Shown piece by piece: positions 57,568-61,017 of a DNA stretch of 64,000 bases. The notes below the pieces were generated by a model that was given only the letters and a program-made list of their open reading frames with translations, did not search any database and was not told the origin of the DNA. Every line of letters begins with the position of its first letter. The first letter of the stretch is position 1. A program made the translations under genes and the position numbers. Source of the DNA: Candidatus Kaiserbacteria bacterium (GTDB lineage Bacteria; Patescibacteriota; Minisyncoccia; Phycocordibacterales; UBA918); assembly GCA_016699245.1 (NCBI GenBank), contig CP064968.1, forward strand, positions 89,686 to 153,685, given 5' to 3'.

Positions 57568-59086
57568 TTATGGGTGTACGAGGCATCTGCCGGTCATTAC
57601 TGCCGGCTGTGGAAGATTCATTAAGTGAAGGATAGTGGGCGCCACATCAGCGAGTGTCCCGTTTTCAATTTTTTCTTCATGGGAGGTCACAATAACGGGG
57701 ACGTGGTTGGTGGTGTGTGCGGTATGCATTTCACCCGTCTCATGGTTGATATTTTCTTCTGCATTGCCATGATCTGCGGTAATGAGCACAACCCCATCGT
57801 GTGAAAGTGCCGCCTCCACCACACGCTTCAATTGCGTATCCACTTCTGTAAGTGCAATGTGGAGCGCTTCTGTATTGCCGGTGTGTCCCACCATGTCGGC
57901 ATTAGCGAAATTGATAAAAATGAAGTCAGTTCCTTTCTCTATGGATTCGAGCGCCTTATCAGCAATTTCTTTTGCACGCATTTTTGGCGCGAGGTCATGC
58001 GTGAGTACGTCTTTGCGACTCGGTACGAGAATGTGCTCCTCACCAGGGTAGGGAAGTTCATGGCAGCAATTGAGAAAGAATGTTGCATGCGCATACTTTT
58101 CTGTTTCGGCAATGTGTGCCTGTGAAAGTCCGGCATCAGAAACTTCTTTTGCGAGCGTTGTCGTAATTTCTATTGGAGGGAATGCAACATGCGCAGGAAT
58201 TCCTTTCTCGTACTCGGTAAGTGTCACAAAACACAAATCCTTCTTCTCTGCATGCGTCACAATTTTACTCGAGAGCATGCGCGCTCGATCAGAGCGGAAA
58301 TTAAAAAAAGAAAATTCCATCATGATCCATCACCGTGTACTGGTGCCCCTCTTCATCAAGGAAAACGGTGGGTTTCACATGCTCATCAAAGACACCCTCT
58401 GCATACAACTTCTCCATTATCTCAGATGGTCTGCATGTATGCTCAGTGTTATCACATCGTCCATGGAAAATTGCATCCTCAACACGCTCGAGCCTGTCCC
58501 AGTTGTTGTCTCTATCCATTGCATAGAAACGTCCGGCGGTGGTGGCAATAAATCCGATGCCTAAATCATCGATGACGTCCTCAAGTTCCTTGAGATACTG
58601 TGCTGCACTTCGTGGCCCTGTGTCGCGTCCGTCGGTAAATGCGTGAATGGCTATTTTTGTTACACCCGCCTCTTTTGCCGCCTTCATAAAAGCGTACAGA
58701 TGGCTACTGTGACTATGGATTCCTCCCGGGGAGAGGAGCCCTTTGATATGCAACACCGAATCGTGCTTTTTTACATGGTCAAATAGTTTTATAAAAGCAG
58801 GATTCGTCGCAAACTCATTATTTTTTACCGCCTTTGATATGCGGAGTAAGTCGGTATCAATAATTTTACCTGCACCGATGGTCATGTGTCCCACTTCACT
58901 ATTTCCCATCTGGCCAGAGGGAAGACCGACACTCTCCGAACTTGCTTCAAGAAGCGCATGAGGATAGGTATTCCACAAGGAATCAAAAAATGGTGTCGGC
59001 GCTTCTGCTATGGCATTATCGCGCGTCTCTTCGCGATGCCCCCATCCATCGAGAACAATGAGAACCGTTGGTTTTTTATCGTGCAT
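57568..59086 (-). CDS. gpmI: 2,3-bisphosphoglycerate-independent phosphoglycerate mutase, split by a -1/+1 frameshift at a T7/A7 tract near 58294-58325
   Basis: N-terminal half (58301..59086: VLDGWGH, catalytic Ser region) and C-terminal half (57568..58323: FNFRSDRAR...DHGN) together equal a full ~510-aa iPGM; junction ...IFF|FNFR falls in a homopolymer run. Confidence 0.8.
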
Positions 59087-59150
59087 ATCAATATTTTAAA
59101 TAAGTTCCAAGTATACTACATAATTTGTGTGTATCTATAGATATGTATAT
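58950..59150. repeat. copy A of a ~190-bp diverged direct repeat (gpmI 5' end + upstream region)
   Basis: Roughly 80-85% identical to 60740-60900. Confidence 0.6.
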
Positions 59151-59206
59151 GTTAAAAAAAGATAGAAAGTTGTGTCCTGTTGCTCTTGAGGTCAGACATC
59201 AAAAAC

Positions 59207-60673
59207 CTATAGCGAGAGTCTATATTGTGTATAATTTAAGAAATCATTGATACTTACTAAATTACCTTGACAACTGGAACAAGAGTAAATATGAATATCT
59301 TTTGGGATAGTTCCACCATGTATGTCGAATAGTGGTACCAGGCAGTGAGGACACATATAAGGTTGCTGCGTATTGCTCCGTTGTGTACCAGAGTCTAGAT
59401 ATTTTACAAAATAATCCTTGGTGTCAATACTCGATAGTGAATAGAATGAACCTTTATCAAACCAGATGTTAATACATACACCACATACCCAGGCCTTTCT
59501 CTGTATGTCGTGTGGCCCTAATGCATCAATCTGTGTAAGTGTATGGCCGCACACGCTGCAGGCTAATAATTTTATTGGGCTATACGACTCGGTAACTGTA
59601 GGGTCAAAACTTTTTATTAGTCGTAACCTTTCTTCAATGAGTTGTTCTTCGAAAGATTGATCTTTTTCTGACGTACTTGCTAAAAAGAAAGGTGAGTAGT
59701 AGGCAAATTCCTGATATGTCTCATCTTGTACAATCATTAATACTTTGTTCAATGCAGAATAGAGTGCTTGTGGATGACGAGTAAGTTCAAGTGCTTTAAG
59801 GTCTGCATAAATTGCCTCACCATAATTCATGGTGTAGTAAATGAATCCCGTGATCAGTACGATAATCAAATGAATCGGGTTCATCACTAAAAAGACTAAA
59901 CCAGCCCCAATAGTGTTGTTTAATGATTTATGCTCATCTAAAAATATCCCGACGACAATTGCGACATACATTCCAAGCCATATGAGTGGTAAAAACGGGT
60001 GTATGGTTCCAAGGAGAAGTAAGAATGAGAGTAGCCCAACAACTTTAGTTATAGTAATTAACCATTCAACAGTCCTTCTCGTTGATATCTCATCGGAAAG
60101 ATAGTGGCCAATTTCATGTGCAATGTATGCTTCTGCTTCACTCACACTAAAATATTGAAGTAAACTCGTACTGACATGTAGTTGTGGGGCACCAATAGTC
60201 CTTAGGTGTAAGAAGAGTTTTGGCATATTTCCTGCATACATAATCAGTTGTGGCGTTTCGATGCCTGCCGTTTTTGATAAGTTTTCTAGAATTTTTTGTA
60301 TCGTAACTCTGTCGACGTGTTTTGTGTGATCAGTATGTGTTCCGTTTTGGACAATGAATTCTTGAGCAAAATATGCAACAACAAGAAGTATTATGCTAAA
60401 CCACACGTCATTATAAATATACGTGTCGTGCAGGTACGTCGTATGTACAAAGAGTTGATATGCCAGATACGATATGCCAAGTATCAGGAATATAAGTGCC
60501 AGAATAATATATGCGCGTTTTCTTTTTACACGATCAACAACCGTCCAATAGGTCTCATTCTTTTTATTAGAAAAAATTGTCTGACTGAATAGTTTTCCCA
60601 AATACCTCGCAATTACATCATTTTTGAATGCTAGGGGAAAGACAATTATGATATATATAAAAACAGATGACAT
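59207..60673 (-). CDS. membrane M48-family zinc metallopeptidase (HtpX-like) with C-terminal double Zn-ribbon
   Basis: AHEIGHYL (HExxH) with flanking TM helices; C-terminal CSVCGH...CGVC and CPHC...CSSC pairs. Confidence 0.65.
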   Translation of the reverse strand: MSSVFIYIIIVFPLAFKNDVIARYLGKLFSQTIFSNKKNETYWTVVDRVKRKRAYIILALIFLILGISYLAYQLFVHTTYLHDTYIYNDVWFSIILLVVAYFAQEFIVQNGTHTDHTKHVDRVTIQKILENLSKTAGIETPQLIMYAGNMPKLFLHLRTIGAPQLHVSTSLLQYFSVSEAEAYIAHEIGHYLSDEISTRRTVEWLITITKVVGLLSFLLLLGTIHPFLPLIWLGMYVAIVVGIFLDEHKSLNNTIGAGLVFLVMNPIHLIIVLITGFIYYTMNYGEAIYADLKALELTRHPQALYSALNKVLMIVQDETYQEFAYYSPFFLASTSEKDQSFEEQLIEERLRLIKSFDPTVTESYSPIKLLACSVCGHTLTQIDALGPHDIQRKAWVCGVCINIWFDKGSFYSLSSIDTKDYFVKYLDSGTQRSNTQQPYMCPHCLVPLFDIHGGTIPKDIHIYSCSSCQGNLVSINDFLNYTQYRLSL

Positions 60674-60750
60674 ACACTTTATTATACTTCACTGTATATG
60701 TTAGAAGTGTATATTATCCTTGTTCTCAAGGTCCGACTCCGGGAATCGTA

Positions 60751-60852
60751 TCAAAAAAGTGCAAGAGTTTCCGCAATGGCACTATCGAGAGTTTCCTCGC
60801 GATGCTCCCACTCGTCGAGAACAATAAAAATCGTTGGTTTTTTATCGTGCAT
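60751..60852 (-). pseudogene. duplicated 5' fragment of gpmI (33 codons: MHDKKPTIFIVLDEWEHREETLDSAIAETLALF*)
   Basis: Copy B of the direct repeat; cf. authentic MHDKKPTVLIVLDGWGHREETRDNAIAEAPTPF. Confidence 0.55.
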
Positions 60853-61017
60853 ATCAATGTGTTACATAAGTCCCAAGTATACTACATAATCAACATGCAT
60901 ATAAAAATGTATGTATGCAAAGAAAGAGTAAGGGACTGTAATTTGCTCACCGTATGAGGTGTGATTTTTATTTATTTCCTGAACGCGGACTGGTGTATAA
61001 TGAAAAACCGTTCGCAA

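Follow-up and report, generated by a model that had tools for sequence, protein, structure and literature searches.

How can a reduced genome gain an accessory gene directly in front of an essential one while the essential gene keeps its promoter and its start? A clean, datable case is offered by a locus in the metagenome-assembled genome of a Candidatus Kaiserbacteria bacterium, a member of the candidate phyla radiation (CPR, Patescibacteria). The window, that is, the whole stretch of DNA analysed here, comprises 64,000 nt (NCBI GenBank assembly GCA_016699245.1, contig CP064968.1, positions 89,686 to 153,685 of the forward strand). In it, a gene for a divergent HtpX/M48-like membrane metalloprotease stands between two diverged direct copies of the 5' end of gpmI, which encodes cofactor-independent phosphoglycerate mutase (iPGM), and the essential neighbor has been kept through the duplicated promoter and start. 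An earlier note on this DNA had proposed a recent insertion. We find the arrangement to be a scar of a known kind, left by integration or duplication and containing a displaced fragment of a gene end, and we regard it as the trace of an old, fairly ordinary gene insertion with duplication, neither recent nor exotic. For one specific course of events, an old insertion into the 5' end of gpmI with duplication of the target, our confidence is about even.

Two diverged copies of the gpmI start around a protease gene

A repeat search of the window paired 58987-59159 with 60753-60925 (173 nt, 77% identity). Gapped local alignment placed the copies at 58982..59162 (copy A, proximal to gpmI) and 60750..60927 (copy B, distal), both on the minus strand, with a score of 97 compared with 10.6 (standard deviation 1.6) for shuffled sequences, none of 300 of which reached 97. 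The direct repeat at the gpmI start is thus present almost where the earlier note had put it, but at an identity below the 80-85% given there: 41 mismatches in 174 aligned columns correspond to 76.4%, and values across methods range from 76 to 78%. Common to both copies are about 76 nt of upstream sequence, the hexamer TATACT, a leader, an ATG and 32-33 gpmI codons. In copy A, for which the open reading frame (ORF) list was also used, the upstream sequence with its promoter-like -10 element and the 5' leader lead up to the ATG at 59086-59084, from which the first ~35 codons of the genuine gpmI follow. Copy B, upstream of the protease gene, is a gpmI 5' pseudo-fragment. It encodes, as had been claimed, MHDKKPTIFIVLDEWEHREETLDSAIAETLALF in a stub ORF of 33 codons (60751..60852, minus strand), which ends at TGA and in which the iPGM motif DGWG has become DEWE. 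The direct repeats on either side of the insert are, in short, the intact start of gpmI and a displaced 33-codon stub of it. Read along the minus strand, the MliC-like gene (61467-61018) comes first and is followed by copy B, the protease gene (60673-59207), copy A with gpmI (59086-57568), and eno (57489-56182).

The longest identical run between the copies is 27 nt long (59066-59092 and 60832-60858). According to a MAFFT alignment, homology might continue past an indel of ~25 nt to about 58937 and 60722, so that 58937..58981 on the gpmI side (minus strand) would pair with 60722-60749; this extension is uncertain. Beyond the repeat edges, the outer flanks of the two copies are dissimilar (p = 0.6), comparison of the sequence upstream of copy B gave no relic of the protease 3' end, and there is a single protease gene, so that the locus does not qualify as a simple tandem duplication. 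The repeat search yielded no further gpmI-like sequence in the window. The earlier note had the two copies flank the M48 gene exactly. The ORF at 59207-60673 does lie between them, but spacers of 44 and 76 nt intervene. The former, from the protease stop to copy A (59163..59206, minus strand), is devoid of a terminator-like hairpin. In the latter, from copy B to the protease start codon (60674..60749, minus strand), a TATAAT precedes the ATG by 8 nt, a hairpin (z = -2.1) covers the start codon, and there is likewise no terminator.

Could the arrangement be an assembly artefact or a chimera of strains? The source is a metagenome-assembled genome, and a contig of the Logan collection (L001, run SRR11674051, an independent assembly) stops at 59076, within the identical run. 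Yet this same contig, the product of a second assembler, is 100% identical to window positions 59076-62036 and includes both new junctions, and the arrangement is therefore not a scaffolding artefact. Moreover, the copies differ by 22-24%, which an assembler could neither collapse nor invent, and the change of DGWG to DEWE in copy B would be unexpected in a working gpmI of another strain. We consider an artefact hardly credible. The ends of L001 are of interest in themselves: one lies inside the 27-nt identical run (59066-59092) and the other 6 nt into a repeat that flanks a Fic gene (described below), where assembly with k = 31 should not branch, and these end points may reflect strain variation at both sites.

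The protease gene (59207..60673, minus strand; 488 aa) is the sole gene between the copies. Its product has an HEIGH sequence at residue 186 and four CxxC pairs at residues 372-468, which form two C-terminal zinc ribbons. In Pfam it passes the PF01435 (Peptidase_M48) cut-off marginally, with 20.9 bits compared with 20.3, and also matches a zinc ribbon. NCBIfam HtpX models match residues 59-332 (E = 6e-12) far under the equivalog cut-offs, and the protein is therefore a distant relative of HtpX and not HtpX itself. On the combination of an HEXXH motif and an above-threshold profile match, we assign it as a predicted member of peptidase family M48. A word-indexed search of 5.8 billion proteins returned two homologues, P0002 at 54% identity and P0003 with a weak, partial match (E = 3.4e-4). 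The gene for P0002 (locus L002) adjoins GmrSD and methylase genes, a restriction/GmrSD neighborhood. An exhaustive protein search delineated a small family with 50 representatives at E <= 1e-10, mostly full-length and at 24-36% identity, below which ordinary HtpX-sized proteins appear from about 1e-7. No match to the protease was found in phage records and viral contigs. The GC content of the gene is 37%, compared with 47% for gpmI and eno, and the gene lies at the edge of a stretch of 31-39% GC that begins at ~59100. There is no recombinase or transposase in the insert, in which Pfam and NCBIfam identify only M48/HtpX and zinc ribbon domains in the single ORF between the copies.

Descent and age of the distal copy

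The gpmI-eno pair is conserved in relatives, at 83% nucleotide identity in L088, 74% in L089/L090 and 71% in L091. In the window, eno (enolase; 56182..57489, minus strand), recognized by a domain match and from the relatives' loci, follows directly downstream of gpmI (57568..59086, minus strand), which is present as two ORFs of 261 and 251 aa. What stands upstream of the pair varies: a small gene and a terminator in L088, an unrelated 158-aa ORF and an MFS gene in L089/L090, and a SpaA-like gene on the opposite strand in L091. Neither the protease gene nor the MliC-like gene is found upstream of gpmI in any of these loci, each of which has a different neighbor; the upstream gene of L089 was tested as an MliC homologue and is not one. 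Gene order at this place thus differs in every sampled relative. As four relatives have other upstream neighbors, the region upstream of gpmI is a synteny breakpoint, and the presence of the protease gene there is the derived state. Related genomes without the peptidase at this site, which the earlier note had named as the comparison to make, are provided by L088, L089/L090 and L091. The closest relative, L083, is represented by a contig of 1293 nt that is 88% identical over 1237 nt and has its promoter and leader in common with copies A and B.

We compared the first 32 codons of copy A, copy B and L083, and counted the changes specific to copy B codon by codon. Between copy A and L083, 1, 0 and 10 differences fall on codon positions 1, 2 and 3, as compared with 4, 6 and 11 between copies A and B, and 3, 6 and 10 between copy B and L083. 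Copy B alone has undergone 9 nonsynonymous and 5 synonymous changes, two of which destroy the conserved DGWG. Under neutrality, ~10.8 to 3.2 would be expected (~74 nonsynonymous and 22 synonymous sites), and the binomial tail is estimated at ~0.2. In the constrained lineages of copy A and L083 together, there are 2 nonsynonymous and 8 synonymous changes, and under that ratio the probability of the copy B count is estimated at ~2e-4. The changes in copy B since its origin thus appear to fit neutral decay, as in a pseudogene. With 14 changes to judge by, a short early period of constraint on copy B, that is, import from a close relative, is also possible.

Together with the relatives that have no protease gene upstream of gpmI, the pseudogene-like character of copy B bears out the proposal that an insertion or duplication left a gpmI 5' pseudo-fragment as its footprint. 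As its inner boundary is fuzzy and could be the edge of a later deletion, copy B might instead be what remains of a complete second gpmI (a duplicate of the whole gene, or an ancient paralog) that was truncated afterwards. The earlier note had named an intact second gpmI-like gene in relatives, indicative of an ancient paralog, as the finding that would speak against insertion. This was not seen: each of the relatives' loci examined holds a single gpmI, without a second one, and the window contains no other gpmI-like sequence. In addition, copies A, B and L083 have 12 states in common against the outgroup L088. Since copy B groups with A and L083, it is no ancient paralog, and we judge a remnant of a second gpmI to be quite improbable.

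Within the group of A, B and L083, support is split over the three groupings that are possible (3, 3 and 2 sites), a star-like pattern, and over 173 columns the lineage-specific changes number 22 in copy B, 15 in copy A and 13 in L083. Synonymous divergence (dS) between copy A and L083 is ~0.40 over 161 codons, or ~0.2 per branch, and the branch to copy B amounts to ~0.15-0.16 substitutions per site. Judged by these comparisons, copy B derives from a gpmI of the same clade and arose roughly when the lineage of the window and that of L083 split. With an age close to that of the split from the nearest relative sampled, the event is not recent, and the recent insertion that had been proposed has to be given up in favor of an old one.

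Possible insertion with target duplication, or copying in place

In the reading that we favor, DNA carrying the protease gene would have entered gpmI between codon 33 and ~codon 50, and ~180-225 bp of the target (the promoter-like -10 element, the leader, the ATG and the first codons) would have been duplicated on both sides of the insert. The proximal copy A provides gpmI-eno with a complete promoter and 5' end, and the distal copy B is left as a stub whose changes are those of neutral decay. According to this reading, gpmI retained its complete promoter and start because the target segment was duplicated. The earlier note had placed the insertion in the gpmI promoter region; the 5' region of gpmI is indeed where it lies, but the break falls within the coding sequence. 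The simplest single event would possibly be the integration, by a single crossover (Campbell-type), of a circular DNA in which the protease gene was joined to gpmI 5' homology from a close relative. A long staggered break as the point of insertion would lead to the same layout, and the sequence is compatible with either course.

The same layout might have come about in place. In that case, the protease gene would already have been the neighbor of gpmI, and only the promoter and 5' segment of gpmI would have been copied across it, either by tandem duplication of a unit of 1766 nt, made up of the protease gene, the promoter and the 5' end of gpmI, with the first protease gene lost thereafter, or by a template switch during replication. 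Evidence relevant to this comes from L083. The first 88 nt of its contig encode a protein tail, ...FCYTQYTSIKDKQNTTHHSLSL, which aligns with the protease C terminus (4 of 2000 shuffles reached the score). At the nucleotide level, its 5' end is colinear with the protease 3' end and the spacer (z = 2.4, p = 0.02), and it aligned neither with the flank of copy B (p = 0.34) nor with any of 9 control segments. This similarity suggests that the protease gene probably stood upstream of gpmI in L083 already, and provides moderate evidence that the two genes were adjacent before the lineages of the window and of L083 separated. The adjacency would then be at least as old as the duplication, which speaks for copying in place. 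Derivation of copy B from the same clade is also in keeping with it, and a perfect 2878-nt tandem duplication elsewhere in the window shows that duplications occur here. On the other hand, two events would be needed, including the clean deletion of one protease copy, and no relic of a second protease 3' end remains upstream of copy B (p = 0.6 for the outer flanks; p = 0.34 for the region upstream of copy B compared with L083). The GC content of the protease gene looks foreign, and the gene is absent upstream of gpmI in four relatives. Copying in place is therefore an alternative that we hold to be somewhat doubtful but take seriously.

Insertion with target duplication would have consequences for expression. 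Copy A contains a promoter-like site at 59110..59137 (minus strand; TAGATA, a 16-nt spacer and TATACT), the -10 element and leader of which are also conserved in L083 and L088. The promoter-like site of copy B at 60876..60905 (minus strand; TTTATA, an 18-nt spacer and TATACT) points into the stub ORF and the protease gene. It belongs to a block from -40 to about +25 in which copies A and B are conserved, mismatches between them being unevenly spread (scan permutation p = 0.007-0.03). The same block is conserved between orthologues, and functional constraint would explain it as well as a crossover site would. We found no terminator-like structure on the minus strand from copy B through the protease gene to gpmI. 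Transcription would probably begin in copy B, pass the 33-codon stub and enter the protease gene, and it might extend as far as gpmI-eno. RNA structure in the repeat was not indicated: there was no covariation, fold z-scores were +1.0 and -1.25, and the sole Rfam hit was sub-threshold.

Several observations weigh against an insertion with target duplication, or at least against parts of it. The key relative, L083, is a short contig of 2.3-fold coverage that carries a frameshift of its own. Either the adjacency or the duplication may have come first, and an adjacency that came first would imply copying of the gpmI 5' end and not an insertion. At the divergence of the two copies, the 27-nt identical run is only marginally longer than expected by chance. 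The locus of the protease homologue, L002, has no flanking repeats. Neither terminal inverted repeats nor att-like features were found at the ends of the protease cassette, and because these and a recombinase are missing, the mechanism has to be read from the layout. Finally, the changes specific to copy B show no significant depletion within the promoter block (p = 0.23-0.63) and are not clustered, and selection on the copy B promoter core, with bounds set beforehand, was not significant (p = 0.49); significance was reached only by the scan of mismatches between copies A and B. Continued function of the copy B promoter is for this reason weakly supported, and its reuse to express the protease gene is plausible at that strength.

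How does the scar compare with those left by known systems? In Campbell-type integration, the segment of homology comes to flank the incoming DNA on both sides in direct orientation, and the gene is left in two copies, of which one is intact and the other truncated. By established genetics, such an event would give the layout seen here. It is known mainly from laboratory suicide vectors, and a circle that bears the protease gene along with 180-225 bp from the gpmI 5' end would, in nature, be a hypothetical source. Transposons and insertion sequences (IS) generate target-site duplications of ~2-15 bp. Direct repeats of the target flank the insert in their case as in ours, but the repeats here are ~180 nt long and there is neither a transposase ORF nor terminal inverted repeats.

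The nearest analogue is found in Escherichia coli, where e14 and phage 21 integrate into icd: a duplicated and diverged end keeps icd intact, and an icdC fragment is displaced to the far end of the element (PMC13626634). There as here, the insert lies between an intact target gene and a displaced pseudo-fragment of the same gene end, and in the case of e14 and icd the target stays functional. Unlike the insert described here, however, e14 rebuilds the 3' end of the gene and is a 15-kb prophage with its own integrase and SOS-induced excision. In our case, the 5' end and the promoter are duplicated, the insert is a single gene of 1.6 kb without a recombinase, and homology extends on both sides of the core. 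Insertion at gene 5' ends has been described for GInts (ginABCD genomic islands), with the neighboring gene expressed from a promoter that the island brings (PMC5385486). In contrast to the present locus, these are large islands with four recombination genes and an outward promoter of their own, and they do not duplicate the start of the target; no gin genes are present here. As the defining feature, a recombinase, was tested for and is absent, we do not assign the insert to any named mobile-element family.

A second bracketing repeat and other features of the window

A Fic/DOC-domain gene (62449-63342, plus strand) is bracketed in the same manner, by two copies of a 217-nt repeat at 62030-62246 and 63423-63639 with 95% identity and sharp boundaries. 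This repeat duplicates, on either side of the Fic gene, the promoter region and the first 49 codons of a gene for a small membrane protein, which is intact with 96 aa at 61887-62177 (minus strand) and present as a 67-aa stub at 63367-63570 (minus strand). The Fic case has the layout of the protease case, is much younger (95% compared with 77% identity) and lies 3 kb away. Similar bracketing repeats were not found at nine other CPR loci, and neither the protease nor the Fic case has a recombinase of its own.

Two such layouts within 4.7 kb (180 nt at 77% around the protease gene, and 217 nt at 95% with sharp boundaries around the Fic gene) suggest a further possibility, namely, that both genes are small cargo of a site-specific system whose recombinase, encoded elsewhere, rebuilds gene 5' ends, the repeats being attL and attR. 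The 27-nt identical core of the protease repeat and a borderline similarity between one end of each cassette would fit. The latter was observed between the left end of the protease cassette (59193-59238, plus strand) and the reverse complement of the left end of the Fic cassette (62272-62318, minus strand), with ~71% identity over ~50 nt. Among 3184 window comparisons it ranked first, with a score one point above the next (15 as compared with 14), and is possibly due to chance; it is also inverted relative to the repeat boundaries, which speaks against such a system. No integrase lies in or beside either cassette within the window, the protease and Fic repeats have no sequence in common, and the homology on both sides of the identical core would not be needed by an att site that rebuilds a gene. 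The protease homologue at L002 is without such repeats, and phage or viral collections contain no match. Taken together, these observations make cargo of a site-specific system unlikely.

A broader proposition would be a recurrent, undescribed route in Kaiserbacteria, and perhaps in other CPR, by which single accessory genes are inserted at the 5' ends of resident genes, ~200 bp of promoter and first codons are duplicated, the resident gene is still expressed, and the displaced promoter drives the new gene. We regard this as improbable and keep it in view mainly because of the Fic case. If the route were recurrent, it would be a specific means of acquiring genes, in a group of organisms whose recombination and mobile elements are almost entirely unknown. 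By itself, the protease/gpmI scar is a modest observation on genome evolution.

The surroundings of both cassettes differ in composition from the rest of the window: GC content is 31-39% in 59100-61650 and 62250-63600, as compared with 45-50% in the remainder. These low-GC stretches contain the protease gene, an MliC-like lysozyme-inhibitor gene (61018..61467, minus strand), a short ORF (61509-61655, plus strand) and the Fic gene. The MliC-like gene, recognized by profile search, is the outer neighbor of copy B and falls within the low-GC stretch of the protease gene. By eye, the short ORF at 61509-61655 resembles a fragment of a RelE/ParE toxin, and it has no Pfam match. Overall, the low-GC stretch looks like a zone of accessory genes that begins right at the gpmI promoter.

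The gpmI gene itself matches iPGM_N (E = 6e-59) and Metalloenzyme (E = 3e-49), but its frame is interrupted by one extra T. The break lies in a T7 run (A7 on the plus strand, 58303-58309, codon ~259) and splits the gene into its ORFs of 261 and 251 aa. Relatives are intact at this position, where they read TTCTTTTTC or TTCTTCTTT, and a look-up of the two half-ORFs gave no independent record of either. The break reflects either a sequencing error in the homopolymer or a genuine frameshift. With the repaired, full-length gpmI as a query, we found intact relatives of 505-508 aa at 90%, 82% and 80% identity, and many more. A seeming pattern in which all close gpmI relatives are broken was discarded: it came from a search with the 261-aa query in which only hits of up to ~1.75 times the query length were represented, and because of this restriction to short hits the apparent excess of broken genes is an artefact, as the full-length query made clear. 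Split gpmI genes were seen in L083, L084, L085 and L086, with frameshifts or an in-frame stop (188 and 314 aa in L086). These are mostly attributable to the length bias of that search and to low-coverage or long-read contigs, and do not reflect a lineage-wide decay of gpmI. A scan of genome contigs with the N-terminal half of gpmI retrieved only relatives at 60% identity or less, which were of no use for the region upstream of the gene, and a 20-mer at the gpmI start found no close relatives in JGI metagenomes and viral contigs.

Three further observations concern other parts of the window. At 31031-37172, a large repeat-rich gene (ORFs 30863-34270 and 34128-37172) contains the tandem duplication mentioned above, which is 100% identical with a period of 2878-2880 nt and must be either very young or an artefact of the assembly. 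A 49-nt stretch (61756-61808, minus strand; ORF 61676-61801, minus strand) is 86% identical to L091:1937-1985, although the gpmI of L091 is only 71% identical. It begins a short ORF both in the window (MSYDLNSPCNGRI...) and in L091 (MSYNLNCSCNGRI...), has no Rfam match, and is a candidate for either a regulatory element or a small protein that is conserved. Lastly, a cluster of hairpins (61702-61746, 61786-61830 and 61835-61864) follows the small membrane-protein gene on its downstream side. One of the stems, perfect over 14 bp (AAAATCGCCTGACC / GGTCAGGCGATTTT), looks like a bidirectional terminator.

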